From the IMG/VR virus record IMGVR_UViG_3300042892_004104: a DNA stretch of 64,000 bases. The stretch is one strand, 5' to 3'. Of this stretch, positions 9,001 through 36,369 are shown in pieces; the first letter of the stretch is position 1; each line of letters begins with the position of its first letter. The notes beneath the pieces are model-generated. The model worked only from the letters and a program-made list of their open reading frames with translations, did no database searches and was not told the DNA's origin. Made by a program: the position numbers and the translations under genes. This stretch comes from a virus. Its lineage: Duplodnaviria; Heunggongvirae; Uroviricota; Caudoviricetes.

Positions 9001-12000
9001 GCGGTCACAGTGTAAGTGTAGGTGCTCATGTCCTGGAATACTGAACCTGCGTATATTTTGACCACAGGCACAGCAATAGCTGTTTGCGGTAACACTGCAA
9101 CATCTAATTTGAGAGTCTGCCCAGAATAGTTGAATTTAAATTGTTGATAGATCTGGCTGGTAACCGCGGCAGTTTGCCAGCCAATCAACTTGTTATAGCC
9201 TGTGCGAGACTGATATTCCTGCACAGAACCTTGATCAATTGCCAATGTCACACTGGCATTGTCTTCAACATACAAGAATGTGTCCTTGTACAGGTTGTTT
9301 TCAAACACAATGTCGCCAACGTTGTTGATGTTTAAATATTGCAGTGGAAATTGCAACACAGGATCAAAAATGTTGGTATCTCCCACTGCATAACTGAACA
9401 ATTTGCTACCAGCAAATGTTGTGCTGGGGTACTTGGTGTTGTTGCTAAAACTTACACCTACAGTGTCGTACACATTGTACAAGGGTGCCTGCTGAATTCC
9501 TGTTTTTTGTTGTGCTTGTGTCCAATCTGTTCCGTCAAACCAGTAGGTCTTGCCAGCAGTGATAGTGCCATTTAATACCACAGTAGATTGATCGATCAGT
9601 ACATTACCGTCAGTGGCCAGGGTCAAGTTAATCACTGGTTGTTCAATCAGGGGATCTTGAGAATCAGGAATGATAAAACTCACCTGATAGATCTTGTTGC
9701 GTACATCTGCGTCGGTGTCTGCTGCAAAGATCACTCGAGATCCTTCTGCAAGTGCATAGCCATTGATGGTGTATCCAAGAGAGCCATTGATGTTGCTAAA
9801 CGCATCTGTGGCCACAAAGTCAATGATGTCCACTGGTGCCTTGCCTTCAGTGCCCATGTTATATAATCTGATACCAGGACGGAACTGAACAATAGGACGC
9901 TTGGCTCTGAATTGATTGTTCAGCACTGCCGGGACATTGGTGTACTCAGCTGTGGCATTTATCACGTCAATATGGAACCAACGGTTGCTTCGGCTCCAGG
10001 CGTTTAGATCCTGACTGGCACGATTGATTGTGAGATAGTCCGGCTGACCTGGCTCAACGTTCACTGTGGTACTGTCTGCGTCAGCAGCATATGATTCAGG
10101 TACCACAAAATTAGTTACTGGTAACAATTCAATTGCAGTGCCCACCCCTGACACATAGTATTCTCTGTTACTGATGGTGGTGGCCTGATTGACTCCTTCA
10201 CCTTGACCTGTTACAAGGTTAACTGCCAGGCCGCCAAGGGTAGCAGACACTGTGAACTTCTGTCCGTTGGCTGCAAAAGATCTCACATAGTATGTTTGAC
10301 CAGCCACAAGGCCGCCCAGTGTAGGTGCAGAAAACACAATCTGTTGACCAACATACAATTCATTTACTTCCAAAGATGTAATGTAATTTGTTCCTGACTC
10401 TGTGGAACTGTATGTTAACGATCCAATGCCTGATCCAAACTCTGCTGGTTCCACAGCACCTATGAATCGAACGTTGAGGCCATTGGTAAAGGCCACACCA
10501 TTGGGGCTGGTGTATGAACGTTGTCCAATGATTTGATCAAGTGTTAGCGTGTCGGACGCCAACTGATCAATTAGCCGAATTTGTCCAAAAATTTCTGGAT
10601 CTGTTCCGTCTTGGTAATACAAGACGTCTTGTGCCGCGGTCAACAATGGAATACGCTCAAATAATCCTGTGTTGTCCTTGTACCATTGAGTGCTGCTGTA
10701 TTCTGTGCCGTAACGAATTGTGAATTTGGTCAAAGCATCAATGGTCTCAATACGGCTTAAGAAAATGTAGTTTGTGCCTGAGTCGTTGACATAATTGATT
10801 TGCCATAGTTGGTATCGATCTTCAAGTGGAATCACTGTGGTCTGATCATACTCTATAGAGTCATAACTGCCTGGCAGGCCATTGTTGGCAGACACAGCTT
10901 CCAACGGGTCAAACCTGGTGGTACGTTGCCATCCGCCGTCTTCGTAGTCACTGATGGGATTGGTGAATACTAGCGTACGACCGCTAAGATTGGTGATACC
11001 ATCAATGCCGCCGTACTGAGCAATAAATTCAACAACAGGTATGTTGTTGATCTGATCAAACTTTAAATCAGTGATTAAATCAACATTGTTAATACTAGGC
11101 AGATTGTAGTAAAAGTTTTGTGCAGTTTTGTAAGGTACGTTGAAAATCACCGTGCCAAGATCTTGACCGTTGTTGTCCACCCCAAACACATCTCTTGAAC
11201 TGACGTTAGGAGTGGCCGGCAGGAAGCCGCTGACGCCAGGCGCGGCCTGAATCCAAAATCCTGGTCCTGTTCCTGGTACGCTGTCAACAATGGTGAGTTG
11301 CCCTTGCATGTTTGCTTCGTTTTCTGCTGCATAGTACAAGGTGTCAGGTGCGTCTTGCGGAACAACAAAAGTTACCAATCCCGAGTTGGATCCATTGCGA
11401 GTCACTCCTGAGTTGTAAAGTTCGCCACGACCTGTGGTGGGAGCAGTTTTGATCCAGAATGGAAACACGCCTGTCAAGTTCAAGTTGAATACATAGGTGT
11501 TGCCTCGGGCCAGAGTCAGGTCAGGATTTGATTGAGCATCAATTGAATACGCTGAATTTTGCAAATTACGCACTCGGTAATTTACAGTTTCTTTGTTGTT
11601 TTGTGCAACTTGGAAACTATAACTGCCGCCACGTACCAGTTCGATTACAGGATTTTGGCCGGAGATTCCACCAAACGTGTACACACCATCCGCTCGTGTG
11701 ACTGGGAAATTGGCTTGTACAGGTATTCCTGTGGCAGCCACATCAACTGCGGAGGGACCTGCAGGCAACCAAAAATACTGACTGAAATTTACAAACGGGT
11801 CAAAGTCCACAAACGGATCCCAACTATAGTACTCACTTGAGTACAGTTGATCAGGAGTACTGTTGCGTCCGCCTTGATATGCCACAGCATCATTCATGCC
11901 AGGATATGTGATTGCATCACGCACTCGATCAGTGTCTGGCTTGAGACTGATCACTCCTGGCTCCAGTTGATAGTCTGTTCGAGACTTGGTGGGCTCAATC

Positions 12001-12173
12001 ACATAACGGTCGTTGGGATTGACACCAGGGCCTACACTGCGGCCAATGAATCCCTGAGTCTTTTTGAACTGTGGTTCTTGAATTAACTGGTCTAGAGTTG
12101 CTGCAAGAAATTGCTTGTTGGCATCAGTTTGAAAAATTTCAGGTAAAAAGTCAACACTGCGTACTGTTGCCAT
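1..12173 (-). CDS. Giant virion structural protein (baseplate/tail-associated), >4,050 aa, 3' end beyond the left edge; contains FG-GAP-like repeats
   Basis: ATG at 12173 overlaps the gp6 stop (TAATG). Translates MATVRSVDFLPEIFQTDANKQFL. I checked the same frame by hand at ~8050 (DIRDQVLLEFETRIYNNLK), ~5000 (FGTSIAQARNRLAVLIGSP) and 3-59 (FDLENWQLVNAGTYNNG). Its absence from the ORF track is consistent with no stop inside the window. Confidence 0.88.
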   Translation of the reverse strand, partial: MATVRSVDFLPEIFQTDANKQFLAATLDQLIQEPQFKKTQGFIGRSVGPGVNPNDRYVIEPTKSRTDYQLEPGVISLKPDTDRVRDAITYPGMNDAVAYQGGRNSTPDQLYSSEYYSWDPFVDFDPFVNFSQYFWLPAGPSAVDVAATGIPVQANFPVTRADGVYTFGGISGQNPVIELVRGGSYSFQVAQNNKETVNYRVRNLQNSAYSIDAQSNPDLTLARGNTYVFNLNLTGVFPFWIKTAPTTGRGELYNSGVTRNGSNSGLVTFVVPQDAPDTLYYAAENEANMQGQLTIVDSVPGTGPGFWIQAAPGVSGFLPATPNVSSRDVFGVDNNGQDLGTVIFNVPYKTAQNFYYNLPSINNVDLITDLKFDQINNIPVVEFIAQYGGIDGITNLSGRTLVFTNPISDYEDGGWQRTTRFDPLEAVSANNGLPGSYDSIEYDQTTVIPLEDRYQLWQINYVNDSGTNYIFLSRIETIDALTKFTIRYGTEYSSTQWYKDNTGLFERIPLLTAAQDVLYYQDGTDPEIFGQIRLIDQLASDTLTLDQIIGQRSYTSPNGVAFTNGLNVRFIGAVEPAEFGSGIGSLTYSSTESGTNYITSLEVNELYVGQQIVFSAPTLGGLVAGQTYYVRSFAANGQKFTVSATLGGLAVNLVTGQGEGVNQATTISNREYYVSGVGTAIELLPVTNFVVPESYAADADSTTVNVEPGQPDYLTINRASQDLNAWSRSNRWFHIDVINATAEYTNVPAVLNNQFRAKRPIVQFRPGIRLYNMGTEGKAPVDIIDFVATDAFSNINGSLGYTINGYALAEGSRVIFAADTDADVRNKIYQVSFIIPDSQDPLIEQPVINLTLATDGNVLIDQSTVVLNGTITAGKTYWFDGTDWTQAQQKTGIQQAPLYNVYDTVGVSFSNNTKYPSTTFAGSKLFSYAVGDTNIFDPVLQFPLQYLNINNVGDIVFENNLYKDTFLYVEDNASVTLAIDQGSVQEYQSRTGYNKLIGWQTAAVTSQIYQQFKFNYSGQTLKLDVAVLPQTAIAVPVVKIYAGSVFQDMSTYTYTVTADSTVITLNRIYTPEDVIEVLVLSDQTSQIAFYQVPVNLESNPLNENSELFTLGTVRSHYQSICENLPGLTGEINGANNLRDLGNVVPYGLNILQQSAPLTLAGYFLRSKEYNIFSSLQYNSREYIKFKAQMLDAVLSQNIGFRNTAQVLDTAIQDVTLGKLDSQPFYWSDMIPTGVTVASNTYTVGFVTGVTFDTVQVYNYTSANYLGLLVYRNDLLLTRGVDYVVATDGPRITIITTLATGDTIVINEYSNTYGSFVPNTPTKLGLYPAYQPGIVLQKTSTGTIEAIQGHDGSTTPVFGDIRDQVLLEFETRIYNNLKLDGNPVPLDLNNVMPGQFRTTGYSFEEINSILSQDFLSYCGWNKLDYKPQQYSANNSFTWNYSSAQNKLNNQNMLGAWRGIYRYTYDTQQPEYTPWEMLGLSIRPTWWNERYGPAPYTQDNLVLWDDIEAGYVADPVAPYFAEGYARPGLLEILPTGTEGELLSPAQCVMGTFNETQFQKSWTVGDGGPVEASWWNSSSYPFAVMRVLALTRPAKFFALFADRDLYRYNEDYQQYLYNNRFRLDANGVEVYGNGVSKASYINWIVDYNRLTGLDSTNNLTADLKSLDVRLCYRMASFSDKQYIKLYTEKSSPNSINTTLLIPDESYDILLYKNQPFDRVSYSSVTIQRTDRGGFIVNGYSTVQPYFNIFESRATGRLQTYTNGGITIRVPTFYTDTVVQVPYGFEFSSVTSVADFLLSYGQFLDSQGLSFTDIANGYVLDWPRMVNEFMYWSQQGWGTDAIININPLATGLTVTKPQAIVDSILAQTAENSVLNQNSQEFPVRNLNIVRLDNTFVMQALNDNSISFVDLSYTTYEHMVVLNNQSVFGDLIYDPVTGARQSRLNLVAVNSTGWNGNVDAPGFILNQDNVEEWTGTRIYSKGEIVKYKNVFWSALTIVQPSVNFNFNNWTQSDYSQIELGLLPNLSNKANQLVNSYNINSANIDSDNDLLSYGLIGFRPREYMAALNLDDVSQVNVYRQFLGSKGTALSTELFKGANFGKEAADYDIYENWAVQRAVYGANANRSFFELRLNRALLDPNPSLVQVVVPQQASDADQTVLLTDVWRQSYRLTSPDILPTTTTLPTDIALPTAGYVNINDADITVFDINDVGSLNENIDNIEVGTTIWVAKVNNHDWNIYRAESVPGTVDHVCDNLNETSRVIFSKQHDLAIGDKLIIKFFDDEVNGVYDVVGIPNINTVNIVFQFAGDRTVANGQGLGFTLQTMRVAQASDIADLPYANEIRSGARVWVDNNGAGAWSVLEKRQAFENITTIVPDQNVVQAGEQFGTSIAQARNRLAVLIGSPHYAVSDDSSLNQRGGVYVFLRDDSTAYNPVSPLGADEDAVLTLDVEGVRGYGNAVDFGDQAWAVAGASASLGPQGQDNNGYTVVIFRDPALGQPGVIPFAQWQLLTQPGTTTTTTPGAGEFGHSVVMSADERWMYIGAPGLNQVHAYGRVDWQNQFFRVRGNGVTTTYDISNTIQIDQATQLKVTVDGLLLALGTDYTVNAALTEVELSVAAAIDKLVDIQRIYVQQIDAQTYFDVPQTATSGGGSGVEFTIVRVRNEIGQSGGTLPGSIGLTSFGSGYAVGNTITIAATSFGGGVNGVNDIVLTLTSVGAAGSAGAFTIAYTPPTLQTVFDLSTNFFTATNIDSFSITVGSVLYRPNIDYTFNSGTKQLTFATVPTQGTVIVVNAQGYFEYVNTLTVGGLAADARFGHSVSCSTDGRQVMVGTPYQTVSAQVQAGAVYVFDRAVQRFIRNNDSSNAYTVLGTVTAPVTVYLNNTRLINQDNSIVGAPGTFAVSGNTITIADELNIGDNIEIETNQFGLIEAVTQNTVAEFCNFGSAVDLCSNNCSLYVGEPQSSVQVYKGGIVERSVNQSRLYGSIAATVANPALTAGNTLRVNNIDVAVPASNPTIQGLAAAINGLPVGVQSGVPNVLATVTAGILTLSVKNSAAAPYGNKLQVAPGSVGTAFADLGFRTFVWTQNISSPYPIAFAGFGSSVSIDTSAINLVVGAPQGTLYIEVEFDDGTTIFDVGSTEFFSSIAQSGAVYTFDYLPSDSESVSNPGKFVFGAQISTIEVTPYANFGTAVNYTSGLLMVGAPDADVGDSAETDYGSVFVYENATRSPVWQATAVQQPVVDIRLLNSVFLYDQITSATTEFLDFMDPLQGKILGAARQNIDYIGGIDPASYNSGPNNVRGTTWAASHVGQVWWNTSTVRFIDPNQDNIVYASRRWAQVFPGSSVDVYQWISSSVPPANYTGQGTVLDNLSFTVNSKLAADGTIVTEYYFWVRGITVTAPRKTLPVSTVASYIESPRSSGIPYLAPINASTVALYNSGDLIEASDTVLHIEFDRELTTDNVHVEYELIAQGRADGFLSNNLYRKLQDSFCGVDTFGNQVPDLGLSPAERYGVQFRPRQSMFVNRFEALRNYLSRANSVLKQYFIAESRVFNLLNSGEPEPSASSGLWNLRVTNLEILGFQNIDAVPLGYRYLVQTDSNNRGLWTIYTVQNSQTQLGQRALILSRVQNFNTPDYWSYIDWYRPGYNSSSKLITEVASFSLLDTLSVPVGSSVKVTANAQGKFEIYLKTDLAWERVGLEDGTIEFSAELWDYALGRYGFDLEVFDAQYYDQEPVIETRKIIQAINEELFVDDLAIERNRSLILMFDYVLSEFSAPEWLVKTSLIDVDHRIRDLVPYQNFNRDNQEFVEDYIQEVKPYHVQIREFNLQYAGFDDFRGDAVDFDLPAYFDTELELPQFTSPVLLPYQQSTAFNATLTTVSNLPASSTVWTQWPYSEWIQNYLLNLIEVEITSSGQGYNQAPVVTFEGDAVQPAQGFAVVNSLGQVVGVTITTPGVGYRATPVVTFTGGNGSGVRAYASMDGSAAAQDYSGSVIPTTVDYYSPVRTFRTTMKFDRYQYVPTLTEWSSDATYQNGDLVRYDNRVWQADSQDSTAVVGPTFDLENWQLVNAGTYNNG

Positions 12174-24891: not shown

Positions 24892-25812
24892 ATGTCTTTA
24901 CTACCCAAAGCAGCTCCCCGCGTTAACTATCTCAACAACAGAGATATCCTCAAAGAAATACATGCCAGCAAAAACACCTACTGCTGGTACCGAGACCGAG
25001 ACCTCGACCATCAATACGATCTTATTTTGCCCACTGTTGACAAGATCAACCAGCGCACTATTGTGGAAGCTCGCAAGGCACGAGCAGACCGTATCAAACG
25101 AGAAACCGGTCAAGTGATTGATCAGAAAAAGATTGCCAACACCGATCTGGTGTTTCGTATCACTGCATGGGATCATATTCCCATGGCTCCCAAAAAGATC
25201 ACCAAAGCCGAAGCCAAAAAACGCAAGCTAGAAGAAATTCTAGATCTGGATGATGTCACCGAAGATGACCCATTGGCCGACCTGATCGATGAGCCTGTGC
25301 TGGACATGAATCATGTGAGACTGAACTTTCCACCATTTGAACACTATCGATTAAATGAAGACAAAACCACATTCATGGTGGGTCGCAGTCACTGGAAGGG
25401 CGACTTGGCCACAGGTGAATTCTGCAGAGATCATGGCAACATGACTCGTAAATTGGCCATGATGTTTATGAAACTGTGTGAACGCTATGCCACTAGATCA
25501 AACTGGCGCGGCTACACCTACAACGAAGAAATGCGGGGACAAGCACTGCTACAGTTATCACAGATTGGACTACAGTTTGATGAAAGCAAAAGTCAAAATC
25601 CCTTTGCTTACTACACCGCTGCCATCACCAACAGCTTTACTCGCATCCTGAACATTGAAAAGAAAAATCAAAACATCCGTGATGACATCCTGGAGATCAA
25701 TGGTCTGAACCCATCCTGGACTCGGCAAAACTCCGGAAGCAAAAGCATGGCTGCCATGTCCGGACCGGTTGTGAGTAGTCTAGACGATGTAGTAAACTCA
25801 CTAGATGAGTAA
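24892..25812 (+). CDS. gp55: Late-transcription sigma factor, gp55-like
   Basis: NYLNNRDILKEI...LCERYATRSNWRGYTYNEEMRGQALLQL...FDESKSQNPFAYYTAAITNSFTRILNIEKK; directly upstream of gp47 as in T4. Confidence 0.9.
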   Translation: MSLLPKAAPRVNYLNNRDILKEIHASKNTYCWYRDRDLDHQYDLILPTVDKINQRTIVEARKARADRIKRETGQVIDQKKIANTDLVFRITAWDHIPMAPKKITKAEAKKRKLEEILDLDDVTEDDPLADLIDEPVLDMNHVRLNFPPFEHYRLNEDKTTFMVGRSHWKGDLATGEFCRDHGNMTRKLAMMFMKLCERYATRSNWRGYTYNEEMRGQALLQLSQIGLQFDESKSQNPFAYYTAAITNSFTRILNIEKKNQNIRDDILEINGLNPSWTRQNSGSKSMAAMSGPVVSSLDDVVNSLDE

Positions 25813-26821
25813 TCTATTTAAAAAAGCAGCCGTCTTTACTGACATCCACTTTGGACTCAAATCAAACAGTCAACTTCACAACGAAGACTGCCTGAACTTT
25901 GTGAAATGGGCCACGGCCAAGGCCCAGGAACAGGGCTGCGAAACCTGCATGTTCCTAGGTGACTGGCACAACAATCGTGCCAGTCTAAACATTGTCACGC
26001 TGAACTACAGCCTACAAGCCTTGGAACATATGAATGACAACTTTGAACAGGTGTATTTTATTCCTGGTAATCACGATTTGTATTATCGGGACAAACGTGA
26101 TATTCAAAGTGTGGAGTGGGCCAAACATCTTTCAAATGTTACTATATGTAACGATTGGTTTAGCGACGGCAATGTTACTATTGCTCCGTGGTTGTGTGCC
26201 GACGATCATAAACGCATACCCAAACTAACCGGCAAGTACATGTTTGGGCACTTTGAACTGCCCGGTTACTTGATGAATGCACAGATCGAAATGCCCGATC
26301 ACGGCGAGGTGCAACGAGAAGACTTCACCGGGTTTGAACATGTGTTCACCGGCCATTTTCACAAGCGTCAAACCAAAAAGAATATCACCTACATTGGCAA
26401 CTGTTTTCCGCACAACTATGCAGATGCCGGAGACGATGATCGCGGCATGATGATCCTGGAATGGGGCCGGGAACCTGAATTTCATGCTTGGCCAGATCAG
26501 CCCAGGTATCGGGTGTATGGACTGGCCAACTTGATTGATAATGCTGCTGCTTTGCTGGCGCCCAAGATGCATGTGCGTGTGAATCTTGACATCGAGATCA
26601 GCTACGAAGAAGCCAACTTTATCAAAGAAACGTTTATTCGGGATTATGATCTGCGTGAAATGGCCCTGATTCCAAACAAGACATCTGAGGTAGGCGAAGA
26701 CCTTGCGCCAGGTGAAGTCAAATTTGAATCAGTAGATCAGATCGTCACAGATCAGATCACCAACATCGAATCAGAATTCTACGATAACAAATTGCTGTTG
26801 AAGATCTATCAGACTCTATAA
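25805..26821 (+). CDS. gp47: Recombination endonuclease subunit, gp47 (Mre11/SbcD-like metallophosphoesterase)
   Basis: DIHFG, GDWH, GNHD, GHFE and GHFH metallophosphoesterase motifs. Confidence 0.93.
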   Translation: MSNLFKKAAVFTDIHFGLKSNSQLHNEDCLNFVKWATAKAQEQGCETCMFLGDWHNNRASLNIVTLNYSLQALEHMNDNFEQVYFIPGNHDLYYRDKRDIQSVEWAKHLSNVTICNDWFSDGNVTIAPWLCADDHKRIPKLTGKYMFGHFELPGYLMNAQIEMPDHGEVQREDFTGFEHVFTGHFHKRQTKKNITYIGNCFPHNYADAGDDDRGMMILEWGREPEFHAWPDQPRYRVYGLANLIDNAAALLAPKMHVRVNLDIEISYEEANFIKETFIRDYDLREMALIPNKTSEVGEDLAPGEVKFESVDQIVTDQITNIESEFYDNKLLLKIYQTL

Positions 26822-26824
26822 TAT

Positions 26825-28372
26825 ATGATTAATTTACCAAATACTATAACCAACGTACTATCACGACATTGTATCAATCCAGAAGTTCTTATACATCAAT
26901 GGGAAGTTAAATCTAACGAAATAACAACTTTTAATTACCATCAATTATGCGATATGATCGATTATTGGAAATACATGTTGGTTGAAAGATATCATGCTCA
27001 ACCGGGCAAGACTGTGATGATAGAGTTCAATCTCACAAATATCTATTATTTTTCAGCAATCTATGCTGCCTGGGAACTCGGTCTAACACTGATTGTGGAT
27101 TGGGTTCACGCCAACTCCGAACAGATGTGCCATAGCAAAGTTTTTTCTATTCACGGCAAGATCGACTATGCTATTGTGTACAGCAAACAGTTAGACCCAT
27201 CAGACAACAATTTTTACTCGAAGTGGGACGTATTGCGTACCGAATTGCACTGTAATCAAATCATCACCGAAAAAGATTTTGACAACTATCAAATTGTTGA
27301 TCACTTACGTTTTAAAGAAGTAGCGTCAACGGTGTACGCCACGCCACATAGTCAGGCAATATGGACTGCTACCAGTGGCACCACCGGTGTTCCAAAACAA
27401 CAACGCATTGATCATAACTCTGTAGTACTGCAAGCACAGAGATTGTGTAAACATCTAAACTTTCAACCTGGAACCTCGTCATTGCATACAAATAATCTGC
27501 ATCACGGAGCCAGCGCCTGTTATCACTTTTTGCCCAGCATGATGATAGCCAAGCATCAGTGGATCTTGAATTCACACTTTGTAAGCGAAGCTGATTTAAA
27601 AAAATTGTCAGATTTTATAATTGAAAAACAAATCAATAAACTGTTTTTATACACACCATCCAAACTAACAAATTGGTTGAACACCACGTCTGTACTGCAA
27701 CATCCTGTTGATGTTACTACACTATATTATTGTCCCAAAGATATTATATCTTTGGCCAAAGAAAAAAATGTAAGTTCAATCAAAAGTGTATTTGGTGACA
27801 CCACGATCGGCTATGGGTTTTTGGTCAAGAACGTAGATTGCAGCGTACCTCTAGATGCGTATGAACCAAATTGCATTGGTCCAAAATTAGACAATTTCTT
27901 TGATTTTGATCTTCAAGATCAAAGTCTTTACATACAGATTTCCGGGATAGGTAGTACTGAATGGAAGACCAGTCACGACAAGTTTGAGTTACGTGACGGA
28001 AAATATTACTTCTTGGGACGAGGAGCAGATTACAGAATCAACGATGAATGGATACTGCACCATGAAATTGAAACTAAAGTTAGCGAATTGTTCAATATTA
28101 ATAACGAAGAAGGCGCTACTATTGTTGTTGACAACGAAGAACAACAAGTGTATTTGGCCATATGGTCCAGCAACCCCACTGCCGAAGCTGAATTAGACAA
28201 TTGGTTTCGACAACGTTATCGCAACGTTTACATTTCAAAACGAGCAAGAAATCTTGACAAACAAGAGTTCATGGGTGCTAGAAAAATAAGCAGGCCTGCT
28301 CTAAGAGAATATTTCAGAATCAACGCTCCTAGGCTCTCTGAGCATACCGAAAATCCCTGGATCGTATCATAA
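26825..28372 (+). CDS. Divergent adenylate-forming (ANL/AMP-binding) enzyme
   Basis: A3-like TSGTTGVPK, A7-like WKTSHD, A8-like FLGRGAD, A10-like RKISRPAL; 515 aa. Confidence 0.7.
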   Translation: MINLPNTITNVLSRHCINPEVLIHQWEVKSNEITTFNYHQLCDMIDYWKYMLVERYHAQPGKTVMIEFNLTNIYYFSAIYAAWELGLTLIVDWVHANSEQMCHSKVFSIHGKIDYAIVYSKQLDPSDNNFYSKWDVLRTELHCNQIITEKDFDNYQIVDHLRFKEVASTVYATPHSQAIWTATSGTTGVPKQQRIDHNSVVLQAQRLCKHLNFQPGTSSLHTNNLHHGASACYHFLPSMMIAKHQWILNSHFVSEADLKKLSDFIIEKQINKLFLYTPSKLTNWLNTTSVLQHPVDVTTLYYCPKDIISLAKEKNVSSIKSVFGDTTIGYGFLVKNVDCSVPLDAYEPNCIGPKLDNFFDFDLQDQSLYIQISGIGSTEWKTSHDKFELRDGKYYFLGRGADYRINDEWILHHEIETKVSELFNINNEEGATIVVDNEEQQVYLAIWSSNPTAEAELDNWFRQRYRNVYISKRARNLDKQEFMGARKISRPALREYFRINAPRLSEHTENPWIVS

Positions 28373-28374
28373 TT

Positions 28375-29319
28375 ATGCAATTACTATCAAAAATTATTTT
28401 TTCATTAACTTTATTGTTCTCACTACCAGTCTGTGCATTTCCTGACAAACCAGTGAAATTTGTTATCAGCTTACCAGCCGGAAGTGGACCCGATGTACAA
28501 TTACGCCGTGTTGCAGAAGTGTTGTCTAACAAATGGGGCAAATCAGTAATTGTTGAAAATAAACCGGGCGGCTCTGGTCTGGTGGCCATACGTCAATTGG
28601 CCAAAGAGTCGCCCGATGGGCATACCCTTGCATTGTTTTCGGTAGGAGATATTGTTTCTTTTCCGATTCTATATAACAACGAAGAGTCATTAGCCGGCGT
28701 GGAACCACTTGCTCCTTTTTTTACCGCAGACATGGTATTGTTTACCAGTCCACAGATACAAAACATCGCCGACCTAAAAAATGAAATTAACAAAAATCCA
28801 ACTTACGGTTCCTGGGCCGTTGGCAGCATTGGACATATCACTAGTGCAGAATTTGGTAGTATGTATGCCAGCAATGCTACACACGTCCCATACAAAGATT
28901 ATGGGCAGTGGTTTATTGATACTATCAATCGCGAACTGGCATTTGGATTTGCTAGTTTAGGTTCTAGTAGAGCCATGTATCAAGCTGGCAAAATCCATTA
29001 TCTTGCTATTGCTTCTAATCGAAGAGATCAAAGATTTCCTAATGTTCCTACTGTAAGAGAAGCTACCGGAAAAAACATTATAGGGCAGAGTTGGTTGGCA
29101 TTTTATGTTAATAAAAAAGTTCCAGTACCGTTAAAACTGCAACTTGAAAAAGATGTTAGAGATGTGTTAGCGAGTCAAACAGTTCAACAATCGCTAGTTG
29201 ACAACTATTTTATTCCAATGAACACGATAAGTTTGCCAGAGTTTCGAAAGCAAATTGACAGCGATCGTGCAAACTACTTAGATAGTCTTAAAAAATACAA
29301 CATCAATATTAAACAATGA
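28375..29319 (+). CDS. bug: Bug/TctC-family tripartite tricarboxylate transporter solute-binding protein
   Basis: Signal-peptide-like N-terminus, FPDKPVKFVISLPAGSGPD, VIVENKPGGSG, YGSWAVGSIGHI, HVPYK, R...FPNVPTVRE. Confidence 0.9.
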   Translation: MQLLSKIIFSLTLLFSLPVCAFPDKPVKFVISLPAGSGPDVQLRRVAEVLSNKWGKSVIVENKPGGSGLVAIRQLAKESPDGHTLALFSVGDIVSFPILYNNEESLAGVEPLAPFFTADMVLFTSPQIQNIADLKNEINKNPTYGSWAVGSIGHITSAEFGSMYASNATHVPYKDYGQWFIDTINRELAFGFASLGSSRAMYQAGKIHYLAIASNRRDQRFPNVPTVREATGKNIIGQSWLAFYVNKKVPVPLKLQLEKDVRDVLASQTVQQSLVDNYFIPMNTISLPEFRKQIDSDRANYLDSLKKYNINIKQ

Positions 29320-30584
29320 CCAAGTCTTGGCCACGCAACGATACTAGCAAAATACCTTACTGGGTTTACACCGACCCTGAAATATATCAACAGGAATTAG
29401 AACAAATCTGGTACGGACCCCATTGGGTGTATGTAGGTTTAGCATGCGAGATCCCAAATGCAGGAGATTTTAAATTGTCTTGGGTTGGTGAACGAGAAGT
29501 AATTGTTAGCCGTGATCATGATGATAACATTCATGTTTTTGAAAATCGTTGTGCCCATCGTGGAGTTAAATTTTGTCAAAAAAATCACGGCAATACCAAA
29601 CATTTTTTATGTCCGTATCATCAGTGGCGCTACAAGTTAAACGGGGACTTACATAGCCTACCGTTTCAGCACGGTGTAAACAAAGATGGTGAGATCAAGG
29701 GCGGAATGCCCAAGGATTTTGATATTGAGCAACACGGATTAAACAAACTAAGAGTGGCAACACTGCACGGAATGATCTTTGCTACGTTTAGCGACAAAAC
29801 TGAATCAATAGAAGAATATTTTGGGCCGCGCATCATGCCATGGATTGACCGCATTTTCAAAGGCCGAGAACTAGTGTTACTAGGCTACAATAGACAACAG
29901 ATACCCGGTAACTGGAAACTGATGATGGAAAATATCAAGGATCCTTATCATCCGGGGCTGTTACATACCTGGTTTGTTACCTTTGGATTATTTAGAGCTG
30001 ATCAAAAAAGTCGTATGGTGCAGGACGAAACTGGTCGACATGCAGTTATGCTTAATATACGTGGCAATCAAGGTGTTGAAAACGAAGTGACCAAGGGCGT
30101 TGAAAGTTTTAAACCCAAAATGAAATTAAATGATCTGCGATTGCTTGATGTTGAAACAGAAGCATGGTGGACGACCAAAGATCCATTTTCAGATAATGAA
30201 ATTATGCCTACTAATACTATGCTGACATTGTTTCCTAGTGTTATTATACAGCAACAAGTAAACAGTATGAGCACTCGTCACATTGTGCCTAAGGGCAACA
30301 ACCAATTTGAATTTACCTGGACGCATTTTGGATTTAAGGACGACAGCAAAGAACTAACTGAGCGCAGATTGAATCAATCAAATTTATTTGGGCCTGCAGG
30401 ATTTGTCAGTGCCGATGACGGAGAAGTGATAGAATTAAGTCAACACGGATTTAATCAAGCACCTGTTGATAGTCAGGCCCTGGCCGAACTAGGCGGAGCA
30501 GACATAGAGCAAACAGATCACATGATTACTGAAACTCTAATACGAGGAATGTATCAATACTATAGGAAAATAATGGGCGTATGA
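29316..30584 (+). CDS. nagG: Rieske non-heme iron aromatic ring-hydroxylating oxygenase alpha subunit, salicylate 5-hydroxylase (NagG)-like
   Basis: Rieske ligands CAHRG and CPYHQW; mononuclear Fe ligands in ENIKDPYHPGLLHTWF and SADDGE. The segments GGMPKDF, FPSVIIQQQVNS, NLFGPAGFVSADDGEVIE and TETLIRGMY match my recollection of NagG. Confidence 0.92.
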   Translation: MTKSWPRNDTSKIPYWVYTDPEIYQQELEQIWYGPHWVYVGLACEIPNAGDFKLSWVGEREVIVSRDHDDNIHVFENRCAHRGVKFCQKNHGNTKHFLCPYHQWRYKLNGDLHSLPFQHGVNKDGEIKGGMPKDFDIEQHGLNKLRVATLHGMIFATFSDKTESIEEYFGPRIMPWIDRIFKGRELVLLGYNRQQIPGNWKLMMENIKDPYHPGLLHTWFVTFGLFRADQKSRMVQDETGRHAVMLNIRGNQGVENEVTKGVESFKPKMKLNDLRLLDVETEAWWTTKDPFSDNEIMPTNTMLTLFPSVIIQQQVNSMSTRHIVPKGNNQFEFTWTHFGFKDDSKELTERRLNQSNLFGPAGFVSADDGEVIELSQHGFNQAPVDSQALAELGGADIEQTDHMITETLIRGMYQYYRKIMGV

Positions 30585-31069
30585 TTGATAAAATTCATTT
30601 TCAATTTGAATTCGACCAGCTCAATGTTGCTTATGCATCGTCCTTAGACACTGGTGATTTTGCAACCTGGATTGATTTTTTTACAGATAACTGTCGGTAT
30701 GTTGTACAATCTCGAGAAAATCACGACCGCAACTTGCCACTGGCGTTGATTGATTTATGTAGCAAGGATATGTTGAAAGATCGCATTTATGGTGTAACCG
30801 ATACTATTTTTCACCAACCGTACTACACAAGGCACGTGATTGGTGCTGGGCTTCTTAAAGATATTACACAAGAAAATAACCAAACTGTTTACAACGTGGT
30901 TTCAAACTATGCAGTATTTAGAACCAAACCGCGTGGCGCTACCGAAGTTTTTAATGTTGGTTACTACAAAGACAAGATAATTCGTAGCAATGTTGGGTTG
31001 AAAGTTTTGCAAAGACATTGTGTGTACGACAGCGAACTAGTATTAAACGCCTTGATTTATCCCATTTAA
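30581..31069 (+). CDS. nagH: Aromatic ring-hydroxylating oxygenase beta subunit, NagH-like
   Basis: W.DFF, SREN...LPLALI, DRIYGV, PYYTRHVIG, FNVGYYKD, CVYDSEL..NALIYPI; start overlaps the alpha-subunit stop (ATGA). Confidence 0.9.
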   Translation: MIDKIHFQFEFDQLNVAYASSLDTGDFATWIDFFTDNCRYVVQSRENHDRNLPLALIDLCSKDMLKDRIYGVTDTIFHQPYYTRHVIGAGLLKDITQENNQTVYNVVSNYAVFRTKPRGATEVFNVGYYKDKIIRSNVGLKVLQRHCVYDSELVLNALIYPI

Positions 31070-31083
31070 CTTTTTCTTTTTGC

Positions 31084-31112
31084 TTGTAAACTTAGCAGTC
31101 TTCTGTTATAAT
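31084..31112 (+). promoter_or_regulatory. sigma70-type promoter directly before gp46
   Basis: TTGTAA (31084-89), 17-nt spacer, TG-extended TATAAT (31107-12); ATG at 31121 with no visible Shine-Dalgarno. Confidence 0.65.
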
Positions 31113-31120
31113 AAAACTCT

Positions 31121-33196
31121 ATGATCCAGATAAGAAATCTCACAGTTAAAAATTTCATGAGTGTTGGCAACAGCACTCAGGCCATTGACTTTGATCGCAA
31201 TGACCTTACCTTGGTTCTGGGAGAAAACCTGGATCTAGGAGGCGACGGCAGTCGCAACGGCACTGGCAAGACCACCATAATCAATGCCCTCAGCTATGCT
31301 CTGTATGGACAAGCACTTAGCAATATCCGCAAGGACAACCTAGTCAACAAGACCAATGGCAAGGGCATGATAGTTAGCCTGGACTTTGGGGTCAACGGCA
31401 TAGACTACCGAATTGAACGAGGGCGCAAGCCCAATGTGTTGCGATTCTTTGTCAACAATGAAGAAACAGCAGCCACAGACGAAGCTCAAGGAGACTCAAG
31501 AGAGACTCAGGATGCTGTTGAGCGTGTGATTGGTATGAGCCATGATATGTTCAAGCATATCTTGGCGTTAAACACTTACACAGAACCGTTCTTGAGTTTG
31601 AAAGCCAATGATCAGCGCAACATCATTGAGCAGTTGTTGGGCATTACCTTGCTGAGTGAACGTGCAGACCGTATTCGAGAACTCAATCGCGAAACCAAGG
31701 ATGCTATCTCACAAGAAGAAATGCGTATCCGAGCGTTACAAGAAGCCAACAAGCGTATCGAAGAACAGATTGAAAGTTTTTGCCGTCGGCAAACCATGTG
31801 GAAAACCAAATACGATAGCGACCTGTTGACCCTGGTCACGCAATACGACGAGCTGGTGGTAGTGGATATTGAAGCTGAATTATGTGCTCATCAAGACTTG
31901 GCCGCCTGGGCAGAACACAAAAAACAATCAGATGCTCGGATCAAGATGCTGGCATTTCAAACTGCCTGGCAACAGTCACAAAACAAAGACATTACAGAAC
32001 TGAAGGCCAGTTATGATCGTCTCAGTCACATTGACATTGTAGCAGAACTGCAGGCACATGCTGACTTGGCTGAGTATCAGGTCAACACACGATTGCTGGA
32101 AGAACGTGATCGTGAAGTGGCTAGACTGGGTCGAGAAATTGATCGCGACGCTGGGCTAGTTGCAAAACTCAAAACTGAGATTGCTACCTTAGAAGATCAC
32201 CGGTGCTATGCATGTGGTCAGGAGTTCCATGACGTCCAGCATGCCACTGTGTTGACACAAAAACAAGCCATGCTGACTGAAGCCGAGTCTGTTGTGTTGA
32301 CCAGGACTGTTGAATGGTCACAACTACGTGCCCAACAAATTTTTGTAGCGGCAGAGCGACCGGTTACACATTACAAGACCGAAGCTGAAGCTATTCGCCA
32401 TTCCAGCGAACTAGAAAATATTCAACAAAAGATTCAGGCCAAACAAATCGAAACTGATCCTTATGCTGAACACTTGACAGAAAACACCACCGAGGATCCT
32501 GGGGCAGCACCTGTTACTCACTACGACACTGAGGCCAAAGCAGTTAAACACTCAACCATGGTAACCAGTTTGTTGCAACAAATCACTACCAAGCATGCGG
32601 AAACCGATCCTTATGCTGAACAAATTGTGGACATGCAACAAACTGCCATGCAGCAGGTTGGATATGATCAACTGAATGAACTGGTTCGGGTGCAGGATCA
32701 TCAGGAATTTTTGTTTAAACTGTTGACTAGCAAAGACTCATTTGTTCGCAAGAAGATCATTGATCAAAATTTAAGTTATCTTAATGCACGTCTTACTCAC
32801 TACCTGGATCGAATTGGCCTGCCGCACACTGTGAAGTTTCAAAATGATCTAACAGTCAGTATTGAAGAACTTGGTCGTGAACTGGACTTTGACAACCTGA
32901 GTCGCGGCGAACGTAATCGTTTGATACTGAGCATGAGCTGGGCGTTTAGAGATGTTTGGGAAAGTTTATACAGTCCCATCAATCTGCTGTTCATTGACGA
33001 ACTAATAGATTCAGGACTAGACACAGCAGGTATGGAAAGCTCATTGGCCATACTCAAGCAAATGAGTCGTGAACGTCACAAGAGTATTTGGCTGGTGAGT
33101 CATCGTGATGAACTGGCAGGGCGTGTGGAAAACATCATGCAAGTGGTCAAAGAAAACGGCTTTACCAGCTATAACACAGACATAGATCTTAAATAA
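31121..33196 (+). CDS. gp46: Recombination ATPase subunit, gp46 (Rad50/SbcC-like)
   Basis: Walker A RNGTGKTT, zinc hook CYAC, signature LSRGE, Walker B LLFIDE with D-loop SGLD, H-loop SHR. Confidence 0.94.
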   Translation: MIQIRNLTVKNFMSVGNSTQAIDFDRNDLTLVLGENLDLGGDGSRNGTGKTTIINALSYALYGQALSNIRKDNLVNKTNGKGMIVSLDFGVNGIDYRIERGRKPNVLRFFVNNEETAATDEAQGDSRETQDAVERVIGMSHDMFKHILALNTYTEPFLSLKANDQRNIIEQLLGITLLSERADRIRELNRETKDAISQEEMRIRALQEANKRIEEQIESFCRRQTMWKTKYDSDLLTLVTQYDELVVVDIEAELCAHQDLAAWAEHKKQSDARIKMLAFQTAWQQSQNKDITELKASYDRLSHIDIVAELQAHADLAEYQVNTRLLEERDREVARLGREIDRDAGLVAKLKTEIATLEDHRCYACGQEFHDVQHATVLTQKQAMLTEAESVVLTRTVEWSQLRAQQIFVAAERPVTHYKTEAEAIRHSSELENIQQKIQAKQIETDPYAEHLTENTTEDPGAAPVTHYDTEAKAVKHSTMVTSLLQQITTKHAETDPYAEQIVDMQQTAMQQVGYDQLNELVRVQDHQEFLFKLLTSKDSFVRKKIIDQNLSYLNARLTHYLDRIGLPHTVKFQNDLTVSIEELGRELDFDNLSRGERNRLILSMSWAFRDVWESLYSPINLLFIDELIDSGLDTAGMESSLAILKQMSRERHKSIWLVSHRDELAGRVENIMQVVKENGFTSYNTDIDLK

Positions 33197-33251: not shown

Positions 33252-34292
33252 ATGGGCAATGTAAAACTTAAATTACATAAAAAACTTGCCTGGCTTATTT
33301 CCGCACGTGAAACCGATAACTTCTATAACTGCAGACAGCATTCAAAGTTATTATTTCAAGGATCTCGTGCAGTCAAAGATCCAGCTATTGTTGAAATAAT
33401 TAATAATATTTTTGATCAACAAACACATCCGTCAGTTTTGTTACATCGGTCTAATCTAGATAATTTTAAAAAAATTATACCCAAATGGATTTCTCAACAT
33501 ACCAACAGTCAATTACAAGGACTCGATAATTATAAAATTGACTTTAGTAACGGTACTACCCAAAGTTTTGATAGTTTTTATTATCGTCATCGTCAGCGAA
33601 GAATGAGATGTTTTGTAGGTGAGTATTTTTATCATTTAAAAACCTGGGACAATAATAATACCAATTGGAGTTTTGTCAACGAACAGGCCCCGTTGCAATA
33701 TGGAGATGCCTTGGTAATTAGTTTACCATTTTGTGACACTGGCACTACACTACTAGGTTTTGATCAATTGCTTGATCTTTGCGACTCGTTGAATATTCCT
33801 GTTTTGGTAGATTGTTGTTACTATCCTATTAGTGGAAATATCCATGCAGATTTACGTCACGACTGCATAGATACAGTGGCGTTTAGTTTGAGTAAGGCTT
33901 TTCCTATTGCAAATTTACGAATCGGCGTGAGGTTTACCAAATCTAGCATTGTTGACGGACAAACACTGCATGATTCCATTGGGTATAACAACACCCTCAG
34001 TGCGTATGTTGGGCTAAAATTGATTGAAAATTTCAGCAGTGATTATATCTACAAAACTTACAAAATCAAGCAACAAACAGTTTGTGATTTTTTTGGATTA
34101 GAAGCTAGTGATTCAGTACTGTTTGCTGTTGGGGATCAGAATTGGAATCAATACAGTCGAGCAAATTTACTCAACACATATCAATTGAATCTAGACGTTG
34201 GTCAATTTAAAAATAGAATTTCGTTGGTTAGTATTTTTGATCACTGGGATCTGTTTGAATTTATAAAACATGAAGCTACAATTAAAATTTAA
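33252..34292 (+). CDS. PLP-dependent fold-type I (class I/II aminotransferase-like) enzyme, copy 1
   Basis: LVDCCY (PLP Asp motif) and FSLSKAFPIANLRIG (Schiff-base Lys motif, HisC/CobD-like). Confidence 0.7.
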   Translation: MGNVKLKLHKKLAWLISARETDNFYNCRQHSKLLFQGSRAVKDPAIVEIINNIFDQQTHPSVLLHRSNLDNFKKIIPKWISQHTNSQLQGLDNYKIDFSNGTTQSFDSFYYRHRQRRMRCFVGEYFYHLKTWDNNNTNWSFVNEQAPLQYGDALVISLPFCDTGTTLLGFDQLLDLCDSLNIPVLVDCCYYPISGNIHADLRHDCIDTVAFSLSKAFPIANLRIGVRFTKSSIVDGQTLHDSIGYNNTLSAYVGLKLIENFSSDYIYKTYKIKQQTVCDFFGLEASDSVLFAVGDQNWNQYSRANLLNTYQLNLDVGQFKNRISLVSIFDHWDLFEFIKHEATIKI

Positions 34293-34749
34293 AAACATAA
34301 TTGACACGCCAATGTGTGTCATTCGCATCAATAACCAGGAACTCTATAGAGGTGCCGTACCTGATCAATACTCAAAAGAATTTGATTTTTACGACATTGA
34401 TGCTATACTAGTGATTGAACACATTGACAAACACCCACACGACACTGTGGTAGAGAATGGAAAAATTGTCAGAGATCGAAGTTTTGAACTTGAGCAAATT
34501 GTAATTGACAACCATGACTTTGAAGAATTGAAATGGAATAGTGAATTCACTGCATCTAACGGATCAGTATATTCTAGTTGTTTGTTTTTTGGTCCAAATG
34601 GAAATTTTGCATTAAAATTTAACAATCCAGTGTTGAAATGGATTTTAAAAACTCGACATGAAAAAAATAACAACGACCCAGACTGGGAAGAAGATTATAA
34701 TTACTATCAACAGGCATGCAAAATACTACAACAAATATCACAGCAATAA
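34270..34749 (+). CDS. Hypothetical protein, paralog of 35833-36369
   Basis: 159-aa ORF coupled to both neighbours; shared motif K..DT(V/I)(V/I)EN..I..D..F...QI..D. Confidence 0.65.
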   Translation: MKLQLKFKNIIDTPMCVIRINNQELYRGAVPDQYSKEFDFYDIDAILVIEHIDKHPHDTVVENGKIVRDRSFELEQIVIDNHDFEELKWNSEFTASNGSVYSSCLFFGPNGNFALKFNNPVLKWILKTRHEKNNNDPDWEEDYNYYQQACKILQQISQQ

Positions 34750-35777
34750 GACAACTAGCATGGACACTGGCACAGGCTAGTACTACAAATCAGTTAGATG
34801 TTCCGGGAGAATATGTTTGGGCTTTTCCTAAAGATCAAACATTTCAATCTGTACAGGCACGGTCTCGAAGTATTTTTAGTAGCGGCAACAGCATCAAAGA
34901 CCCTGATGTAATACAACATGTGCAACAGTTAAATCTAGCAAGGCATCTGCTTGATCCTTGGATAGTTGAAAAGTTTGAATCACAATTTCCTGCCTGGATC
35001 AATTCTGGAAGCAGATATCAACTACACAATCTTGATCAATTCAAGTATGTGGGATTCAGCGCCGGAACACAAGAGAGTTTTATCAATTTTTATCTCATAA
35101 ACACACACAAAAGATTCCGAGTTTTTCGCGGAGATTATTGGTGGCACATGGATATATGGACCAAGATCAATGCCAACTGGGCTTACATTGAAGATGATGA
35201 CATACGCAAAGGCGACATTTGCATTTGTAGCTATCCTTTTGCTCTCACCGGAGACAAGCATAAACACTTCGACTGGTTAGTTGACGAATGCAATCGCACT
35301 GGAGTTAAACTATTGGTAGATTTTATCTATTTGCCCAACAGTAGTCATGCAGTTGATATTGATCTATCAGCTGAATGTATAGATGAAATTACATTTAGTT
35401 TTAGCAAGACATTTCCAGTGCAGTGTGCTAAAATTGCAGTACGAATGTGCAAATCAAAACCACAAGACCCCATGCAGATGAGCAACGATGAAAACATTTG
35501 CAATCGACTCAGCGCCGGATTAGCACTAGATATTATCAGTCAATTTCCTGTGGATTACAATGTGGTAAAGTACCAGAACCAACAACAGCATTGGTGTAAA
35601 AAATTAGGACTAACTGCAACCAAAGTAGTTCATTTTGCAATAGGAGAAGACTATACTAGTTTTGGTAGGGCAGGACAAACTGCATGGTGTAGCCCGTTTA
35701 ATCAACAACAAAATCGATATAATTTAGGCATGCTTTATGAAAATCAGAATTTGTTGAGAAATTTAAATCTTTATTAA
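34716..35777 (+). CDS. PLP-dependent fold-type I enzyme, copy 2
   Basis: LVDFIY and FSFSKTFP motifs. Colinear with copy 1 (GTTQSF/GTQESF, GEYFYH/GDYWWH). Confidence 0.68.
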   Translation: MQNTTTNITAIRQLAWTLAQASTTNQLDVPGEYVWAFPKDQTFQSVQARSRSIFSSGNSIKDPDVIQHVQQLNLARHLLDPWIVEKFESQFPAWINSGSRYQLHNLDQFKYVGFSAGTQESFINFYLINTHKRFRVFRGDYWWHMDIWTKINANWAYIEDDDIRKGDICICSYPFALTGDKHKHFDWLVDECNRTGVKLLVDFIYLPNSSHAVDIDLSAECIDEITFSFSKTFPVQCAKIAVRMCKSKPQDPMQMSNDENICNRLSAGLALDIISQFPVDYNVVKYQNQQQHWCKKLGLTATKVVHFAIGEDYTSFGRAGQTAWCSPFNQQQNRYNLGMLYENQNLLRNLNLY

Positions 35778-35832
35778 ATTCTGATAATTATTTGCTACTC
35801 TCAATGTTTGATTCATTTTTATACAGTTTGTA

Positions 35833-36369
35833 ATGTTAACATTTACTTTTTCAATCGAAGCTAATCATGGTAGATCTGCACCAAAAATTTGTGCGGGCAA
35901 CAAAAATTTCATTTTGTCATTGGGCCATTCAACTATTGATGTTGTTGTTGAGGATACCGGAACATTGATTTTAGATTTTTACAACAAAGTTGAGTCGGAC
36001 ACAATTATAGAAAATGATTGCATCACTGCCGACACCGAATTCAAAATCCTTCAGATATGGTGCGACGGAATAAAACTAGAACCTTGGTTTAAAAATATCT
36101 CTGTTTATCGTCCTAGATATTTTAGTGGATTTTTAAAACAGTTTCCTGAATCTGTTACAGAAATTACCGCAGCCTACCAGTACAATTTTCCCGGAGATAT
36201 CTGCTGGGCCTGGCAGGACAATTTTTGGGACTGGTACTTTGAACAAAAAAATCAACTTGAAGTTATTAATTTTTTGGATCAAGATCCTGATCGTGTTTGG
36301 AAATTTCGCGGCAGCTTAGATCCGTGTAGCGATCTTGTAGAAAAAATAAAACAAGTATTAAAATTATGA
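35833..36369 (+). CDS. Hypothetical protein, paralog of 34270-34749
   Basis: 178-aa ORF; KVESDTIIENDCITADTEFKILQIWCD aligns with KHPHDTVVENGKIVRDRSFELEQIVID. Confidence 0.65.
   Translation: MLTFTFSIEANHGRSAPKICAGNKNFILSLGHSTIDVVVEDTGTLILDFYNKVESDTIIENDCITADTEFKILQIWCDGIKLEPWFKNISVYRPRYFSGFLKQFPESVTEITAAYQYNFPGDICWAWQDNFWDWYFEQKNQLEVINFLDQDPDRVWKFRGSLDPCSDLVEKIKQVLKL

Follow-up and report, generated by a model that had tools for sequence, protein, structure and literature searches.

Results

Gene content of the gp47/gp46 interval

The 64,000-nt stretch analysed here (IMG/VR record IMGVR_UViG_3300042892_004104; hereafter the window) belongs to an uncultured T4-like jumbo phage. Between its genes for gp47 and gp46, an interval that we refer to as the cargo slot, lie four genes on the plus strand, encoding an adenylate-forming (ANL) enzyme of 515 aa (26825..28372), a solute-binding protein of the Bug/TctC family with a predicted export signal (314 aa, 28375..29319), and the alpha and beta subunits of a Rieske oxygenase that resemble NagG (422 aa, 29316..30584) and NagH (162 aa, 30581..31069), respectively. 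On the left the slot is bordered by gp47, an SbcD/Mre11-like nuclease subunit (25805..26821, plus strand; phrog_100, E 1.5e-64; Pfam Metallophos), itself preceded by a gp55-like late sigma factor (24892..25812, plus strand; phrog_12791, E 1.4e-74), and on the right by gp46, an SbcC/Rad50-like ATPase (31121..33196, plus strand; phrog_77, E 2.5e-98). The genes are closely packed: the ANL gene begins 3 nt after gp47, a 2-nt gap separates it from the Bug gene, the Bug/alpha and alpha/beta junctions are both 4-nt ATGA overlaps, and 51 nt remain before gp46. This spacer (31070..31120, plus strand) contains, just before gp46, the element TTATAATAA, which emerges from the alignment of relatives and is kept in those with and without the oxygenase alike; a promoter-like match falls within the spacer at 31084-31112. 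Coordinates, spacing and PHROGs assignments agree with the initial annotation, which had described four tightly coupled reading frames splitting the gp47-gp46 pair amid phage core genes, and Pfam and PDB searches bear out the families it assigned to the four products.

Identity of the oxygenase

The alpha subunit matches the Pfam families Rieske (5.4e-17) and Ring_hydroxyl_A (2.8e-17) and scores 585.6 bits against NagG (PDB 7C8Z), compared with 308.5 bits against TphA2; the beta subunit matches Ring_hydroxyl_B (E 6.2e-11) and NagH (7C8Z_B, 140.9 bits). NagGH, the salicylate 5-hydroxylase of Ralstonia sp. U2 and a two-subunit Rieske oxygenase of the alpha3beta3 type, is the closest characterised enzyme, as had been proposed initially, and the phage alpha is ~59-60% identical to plasmid-borne and named NagG homologues. 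The alignment shows that the claimed integrity of the metal sites is real. The Rieske ligands C79-A-H81 and C99-P-Y-H102 are intact, with the motif present in all 59 aligned relatives, and the iron-site residues H212, H217 and D368 and the bridging D209 are invariant across the phage proteins, the NagG group and the orphan bacterial pairs described below. D368 forms part of an acidic pair with D367, and the alignment to NagG makes one of the two the iron carboxylate; D367 is replaced by Glu in two of the eleven phage sequences.

Pocket residues were interpreted using the roles given for the NagG and terephthalate dioxygenase (TPADO) pockets in PMC9060491, where TPADO is placed in the subfamily of oxygenases acting on aryl carboxylates, which the phage alpha shares, and where a conserved arginine (TPADO R309, NagG R323) forms a salt bridge with the substrate carboxylate. 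Its phage counterpart, R321, is invariant in the 57 sequences examined, and M245 (M257 in NagG) is invariant across the phage, orphan and NagG groups. The cluster motif, the iron site, the arginine and the adjoining beta gene all place the phage alpha in the aryl-carboxylate subgroup of NagG, TphA2 and AndAc. Within this subgroup, anthranilate 1,2-dioxygenase (AndAc, NF041684) can be discarded, with alpha reaching 394.9 bits against a cut-off of 750 and beta 110.5 against 230. A terephthalate-specific enzyme of the TphA2 type is likewise rejected by its lower score and by the positions equivalent to TPADO S243 and R390, both of which are Met in the phage protein, as in NagG; a dicarboxylate substrate is therefore unlikely. 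Salicylate is a candidate substrate. Three conserved changes particular to the phage proteins (W226F, M236I and S247N) leave room for a shifted specificity.

All four cargo genes are maintained under purifying selection (dN/dS 0.09-0.17): comparison of the window with the related locus L034 gives a ratio of 0.135 in alpha and 0.09 in beta (related loci and genomes used for comparison are labelled L001-L046 and G001), and comparison with L036 gives 0.14 in the ANL gene and ~0.17 in the Bug gene.

The binding protein and the adenylate-forming enzyme

The Bug protein scores 119.8 bits against Pfam TctC (gathering score 27), and its PDB matches are led by Bug27 (1.7e-27), followed by the terephthalate-binding protein (TBP), BugE, TphC and BugD. 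All 17 aligned phage copies share a Sec-type N-terminus (...LPVCA|FPDKP), and in the window the predicted signal peptide spans ~residues 1-21 (28375-28437, plus strand). Signal peptides were called by inspection from a positively charged start, a hydrophobic core and an AxA-like end, and by these features every phage Bug appears to carry an export signal. The top 120 homologues, reaching down to 35% identity, come without exception from metagenomes; many lie on 100-370 kb contigs, and one carries the name 'uncultured Caudovirales phage'. Five of the six oxygenase-linked copies share a single well-supported clade of the Bug tree, so that three changes of linkage are needed as against a mean of 5.1 after shuffling; L036 is the sole member of this clade lacking the oxygenase, and L034 the sole oxygenase-linked copy outside it.

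The ANL enzyme is far more divergent. Its Pfam AMP-binding score (29.8 bits) lies marginally below the gathering score of 29.9, most of its relatives carry a precomputed PF00501 match, a PDB sequence search returned no matches, and NCBIfam gave at most weak partial ones with no subfamily standing out. The AlphaFold2 model (pLDDT 86.8), however, displays the complete two-domain fold of the superfamily, and Foldseek aligns it with probability 1.0 and TM ~0.6 to many ANL structures at 12-17% identity, including PltF, DltA, an acyl-ACP synthetase, MenE and aryl-acid adenylating enzymes. The P-loop reads TSGTTGVPK (motif (S/T)GTTGxPK), and its residues G185, T187 and G188, together with D385 (A7), R399 (A8) and K487 (A10), are invariant in 19 homologues. 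Solved members such as PltF, DltA, MenE, EntE/PchD and 4-chlorobenzoate-CoA ligase thus have the fold in common with the phage enzyme, and with it the P-loop and the A7 Asp, A8 Arg and A10 Lys motifs. Enzymes for aromatic acids (PchD, EntE, CahJ and 3-hydroxybenzoate/salicylyl-CoA ligases) occur among the matches with scores no better than those of proline, D-alanine and fatty-acid enzymes.

Unlike the solved enzymes, the phage family is confined to viral and metagenomic contigs. All 73 close ANL homologues are metagenomic, and an exhaustive profile search yielded 173 clusters at E ≤ 1e-30; none of the clusters sampled came from a named cultured genome, no identifiably bacterial context was seen among those inspected, and the nearest are tagged 'Viruses 100%' in the ESM Atlas. 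Bug and ANL are accordingly families seen solely in viral or metagenomic contigs, and a collection of 50,697 deposited phage records contains no member of either.

The slot in related phages

The arrangement found in the window recurs elsewhere. In a phage genome of 337 kb, complete and with terminal repeats (G001, locus L001), the order is gp55-gp47-ANL-Bug-alpha-beta-gp46, as it is in the 9-kb contig L045; in L002 and L003 the order is gp47-Bug-alpha-beta-gp46, and in L034 a radical-SAM gene is followed by Bug-ANL-alpha-beta and the start of gp46. The window is not an assembly chimera, because alpha and beta lie between gp47 and gp46 in at least five assemblies made independently from different samples, one of them complete; the shared gene order excludes the misjoin at the slot junctions that had been named among the possible refutations of the initial annotation.

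Comparison of these loci shows that the cassette is not a single captured aromatic-acid operon. In ~20 related loci surveyed, the slot always holds Bug and/or ANL, in most cases the two together, as Bug-ANL, ANL-Bug, ANL-Bug-ANL, ANL alone, or Bug or ANL-Bug followed by alpha-beta, and most of these loci have no oxygenase. The survey of related phages suggested earlier does recover alpha and beta in the same place, but the four genes do not behave as one unit. The decisive loci are L036 and L037, which share ~80% DNA identity with the window from gp47 to position 29310 and resume at 31106, with 51 nt standing in place of ~1.8 kb in the window. The alpha and beta genes therefore constitute a clean ~1.8-kb indel (29311..31105, plus strand), bounded by the stop codon of Bug, with which the alpha ATG overlaps, and by the TTATAATAA element ahead of gp46. 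The cassette is thus a composite of an older Bug/ANL pair, long resident in the slot, and an alpha/beta add-on that is gained and lost separately.

The flanking genes are more conserved than the cargo, with identities of 57-87% for the gp55-like sigma factor across all related loci and 64-87% for gp47, as against 35-60% for Bug and 24-89% for ANL across these phages. Between the window and L036 the values are 89% for ANL, 60% for Bug and 70% for gp46, whereas L034 shares 29349-31681 with the window at 91% nucleotide identity and has a different Bug and ANL upstream. Since identity levels do not track along the locus, the slot is a recombination mosaic. Two side observations concern the build of these loci. 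In L019 (6547-10458, ANL-Bug-ANL) the two paralogous ANLs are ~36-37% identical to that of the window, and gp46, which is 44% identical to its homologue in the Pseudomonas jumbo phage PA5oct, falls into two length classes (~690 aa in the window, L009, L018, L020 and L036; ~587 aa in L001, L003, L007 and L013) independent of cassette type.

Origin of the oxygenase

In the alpha tree, twelve sequences make up a single phage clade (SH-aLRT 98), namely those of the window and L001-L003 and eight metagenomic proteins of 422-425 aa; the phage alphas are 64-95% identical among themselves. The clade is grouped, with a support of 80, with a Ferrovibrio sequence and a Comamonadaceae clade of 40 sequences (97). 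NagG, Hyb, the Ralstonia solanacearum homologue and a homologue from an Acidovorax gentisate cluster belong to a different clade (96), which also includes a long-branched Burkholderia sequence. The phylogeny thus puts the phage proteins in a clade of their own beside the Comamonadaceae sequences and not among NagG orthologues.

The nearest cellular relatives, in Ramlibacter, Polaromonas and Caenimonas, are 64-68% identical to the phage alpha. They are encoded by chromosomal alpha/beta pairs which we call orphan, since in three genomes or contigs (L004 10001-11793; L005 10001-12007; L046 686-2484) no ferredoxin, reductase or gentisate genes lie within 10 kb. They differ from the phage version in their GC content, in an N-terminus ~15-20 residues longer and in their patchy distribution. 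In the same three genomes or contigs the pair adjoins genes for DedA, a Gly-zipper protein, AmiC, TsaE and QueG, a conserved spot, and the JGI label for it is 'salicylate 5-hydroxylase' (a label alone). With orthologues of at least 80% identity in ~9 of 101 genomes of the family, the pair has no housekeeping status.

The GC content of the four cargo genes (0.38-0.41) is below that of gp47 and gp46 (0.45), so the DNA is indeed AT-richer than its surroundings, as first remarked; the dip recurs in the relatives, however, and is no mark of recent insertion. The alpha genes of the phages have a GC content of 0.40-0.43 against 0.62-0.67 in the bacterial relatives, which argues for long residence in phages, and recent transfer from an AT-rich donor is ruled out by the GC-rich composition of those relatives. 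Taken together with the monophyly of the phage alphas, the data indicate that alpha was acquired once, long ago, and then diversified within phages.

Missing partners and wider gene content

The electron-transfer partners that NagGH-type enzymes depend on are lacking, in accordance with the initial annotation, both in the cassette (no ferredoxin NagAb or reductase NagAa gene) and in the complete relative. The latter contains no Fer2, NAD_binding_1, Pyr_redox_2, second Rieske, TctA or PP-binding gene. A scan of the window for electron-carrier motifs found matches outside alpha solely in short stop-to-stop frames of 43-157 residues, which were not checked further. With these partners lacking, the oxygenase, Bug and ANL must depend on host ferredoxin and reductase, host TctAB, and coenzyme A (CoA) or another host acceptor, respectively. 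In having no membrane partners of its own, the phage Bug resembles most bacterial Bug genes, which likewise code for orphan binding proteins.

What the complete relative does encode is a series of further genes that may bear on the uptake and use of organic acids. It has five Bug paralogues, four of them outside the slot and all with signal peptides, a DctP-type binding protein of the tripartite ATP-independent periplasmic (TRAP) family, an isocitrate lyase (773 bits against the NCBIfam equivalog cut-off of 562), an NMO-like oxidoreductase, and a second, more canonical AMP-binding gene arranged head to head with another Bug. The extra-slot genes lie in L039 (4291-5265, 5420-6367, 9321-10211), L040 (4123-5094, 6988-8283) and L041 (2540-3631 on the minus strand, 3690-4607). 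Protein identity between the window and this relative is 62-71% for ANL, alpha and the two flanking nucleases and 53-54% for Bug and beta.

Regions around the slot

Directly after gp46 follows an AT-rich island (33252-37937, GC 0.33-0.38) with two weakly aminotransferase-like genes of the pyridoxal phosphate (PLP)-like type, two genes of no assigned family and one for a radical SAM protein of 523 aa with a faint B12-binding match. One or two radical SAM/SPASM genes occupy the same place in L001, L007 and L036, and lie inside the slot in L034; the content of the island differs from phage to phage. The variable region ends with a SegE-like GIY-YIG homing endonuclease (37998-38459, Pfam 1.4e-31), 72-88% identical in nearly all relatives and more conserved than the preceding cargo. 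Co-conversion driven by this endonuclease could be a cause of the mosaic exchange around gp47/gp46. At the other end of the window, upstream of baseplate-like genes, a single open frame of >4,050 codons on the minus strand (3-12173) runs off the end of the sequence. A tRNA scan of the window found none.

Discussion

We interpret the region as a variable cargo slot in a lineage of uncultured T4-like jumbo phages, built of two layers. The older layer is the exported Bug/TctC protein next to a phage-specific ANL; the second, present in a minority of the phages, is the NagGH-like oxygenase, placed exactly between the Bug stop codon and the element upstream of gp46. As to its function, we give about an even chance to a host-dependent set for organic-acid foraging, in which the hydroxylation of an acid of the salicylate type would be an optional addition.

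How could such a set operate? Bug would be secreted to the periplasm during infection and hand a carboxylate to host TctAB, on which it would have to rely because the phage encodes none. The cytoplasmic ANL would adenylate the acid and probably convert it to a CoA thioester, trapping it and committing it to metabolism. Where present, the alpha3beta3 oxygenase, drawing electrons from host ferredoxin and reductase, would hydroxylate an aryl carboxylate of the salicylate type, for which the conversion of salicylate to gentisate may serve as a model, and the product would pass to central metabolites through host pathways. The net effect would be phage-driven foraging of external organic acids that fuels replication, in the manner of cyanophage PstS but through tripartite tricarboxylate transporter (TTT) uptake. 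A bacterial precedent for the linkage exists in an Acidovorax plasmid which combines alpha, beta, ferredoxin, reductase, a hydrolase, a cupin dioxygenase, a TTT binding protein and maiA.

The gene content of the complete relative suggests a broader version of foraging, which we put forward somewhat more tentatively: a lineage-wide modular toolkit that reprograms host nutrition and that phages exchange with one another at the gp47/gp46 hot spot. A single genome would supply as many as five TTT-type binding proteins and one of the TRAP type, which would plug into secondary transporters of the host and be paired with acid-activating enzymes specific to phages, with isocitrate lyase and, in part of the lineage, with the ring-hydroxylating oxygenase.

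Several observations weigh against foraging as set out above. The phage alpha is not an orthologue of the characterised catabolic NagG, and its nearest bacterial relatives, the orphan pairs, have no gentisate genes within 10 kb. Two of the phage-specific changes, W226F and S247N, are near the pocket, the latter two residues past M245. Linkage of ANL and oxygenase is not obligate, as L002 and L003 lack an ANL between gp47 and gp46 and L036 has an ANL 89% identical to that of the window and no oxygenase. Some distant ANL members occur in other large phages without Bug, as in the arrangement Cpn10-ANL-MazG, and the enzyme may therefore have a role independent of Bug. The wider foraging context comes from the complete relative and not from the window's own genome, and the clustering of radical-SAM and PLP genes around the slot could point to biosynthesis. 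Sequence comparison shows gene identity, conservation and purifying selection, export signals, absence of partners and modular gain and loss; the ligand, the reaction, the coupling of the three activities and the benefit to the phage are inferred, and the presence of TctAB, of compatible ferredoxin and reductase and of a gentisate pathway in the host is assumed.

The initial annotation had weighed an auxiliary metabolic system against removal of an aromatic signal. On the latter account, Bug and the oxygenase would bind and hydroxylate a salicylate-like aromatic acid that signals to the host, induces stress in it or inhibits its growth, so that the cell is kept permissive and not fed. Enzymes of the NagGH type do remove salicylate in Burkholderiales (the nagAa-G-H-Ab layout in L028 and the R. 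solanacearum homologue are of this kind), and the coming and going of the sub-cassette between close relatives would fit a niche-dependent accessory trait. But most cassettes consist of Bug and ANL and lack the oxygenase, and the five Bug proteins, the TRAP binding protein, the isocitrate lyase and the second Bug-ANL pair of the complete relative resemble a set for assimilating acids in general. The defence-system models of PADLOC match none of the four proteins, and we know of no phage-relevant aromatic-acid signal for the likely host group. The metabolic alternative is thus favoured, and signal removal seems improbable.

Similarly unlikely, in our view, is a biosynthetic role, in which ANL, the oxygenase and the nearby radical-SAM and PLP enzymes would make or decorate a phage small molecule or a macromolecular modification from the imported acid, an activated dihydroxybenzoyl unit being one example of a product. 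It draws on the radical SAM/SPASM genes inside or beside the slot in L034, L036, L007 and L001, on the two PLP-like genes and the B12-type radical SAM gene just past gp46 in the window, on the carrier-loading enzymes PltF, DltA, EntE and PchD among the best fold matches of ANL, and on the distant ANL relatives that occur in other phages without Bug. The complete relative, however, lacks a carrier protein, and the surroundings of the slot showed neither a condensation nor a thioesterase gene. Which radical-SAM and PLP genes a phage has bears no relation to its Bug, ANL and alpha/beta content, and a secreted binding protein fits uptake better. That the cassette is an assembly artefact, bacterial contamination or a decaying passenger recently taken from a host, to which the low GC of the cargo and the missing electron-transfer partners might point, is hardly credible in the face of the independent assemblies, the monophyly of the phage alphas with a GC content so far from that of their bacterial relatives, the dN/dS of ~0.1 and the full set of catalytic residues.

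Foraging by means of acid uptake and activation relates to several known systems. With NagG the phage alpha shares the metal ligands, the bridging Asp, the carboxylate-binding Arg and the equivalent of M257; it departs from it in its separate clade, in the absence of nagAa and nagAb neighbours, in its three conserved substitutions and in being encoded by a lytic-type jumbo phage. The order of genes for a Bug-type binding protein, alpha and beta is also that of Comamonas tphC-tphA2-tphA3, and TphC and TBP are among the best PDB matches of the phage Bug, although the oxygenase itself scores far better against NagG than against TphA2. The closest analogy in principle is offered by cyanophage PstS, where the phage supplies the secreted binding subunit alone and host membrane components do the rest. 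PstS, however, belongs to another fold family and serves the Pst ATP-binding cassette transporter and phosphate, as opposed to a TTT secondary transporter and an organic acid; the phage Bug, moreover, is coupled to cytoplasmic enzymes and occurs in five paralogues in one relative.

Known auxiliary metabolic genes of phages centre on photosynthesis, nucleotides, phosphate and sulfur. The earlier statement that no characterised phage precedent is known holds: megablast of the 8.5-kb region against deposited phages gave no match, the 50,697 deposited records contain nothing comparable (the best match to alpha is 30% identical), and the literature searched yielded no relevant paper on phage TctC/Bug (a single TctC match proved to be a primer), on ring-hydroxylating dioxygenases as phage auxiliary metabolic genes or on viral salicylate 5-hydroxylase. 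By these two comparisons, this would be the first phage-borne oxygenase of the NagGH type. New here are the oxygenase add-on, its single phage clade, the boundaries of the indel and the genome-wide foraging context; the cassette is a variant of the auxiliary-metabolic-gene idea and not a new kind of system.

The jumbo phages described here provide a natural experiment, comprising near-identical phages with and without alpha/beta, and Bug and ANL proteins whose divergence far outpaces that of the core genes on either side; both substrate range and ecological payoff therefore lend themselves to direct comparison. If the foraging interpretation is true, a secreted organic-acid binding protein of phage origin, coupled to acid activation and to a two-subunit aromatic-ring hydroxylase, would extend the concept of auxiliary genes, and the reach of phages would extend into the turnover of dissolved organic carbon by heterotrophs.

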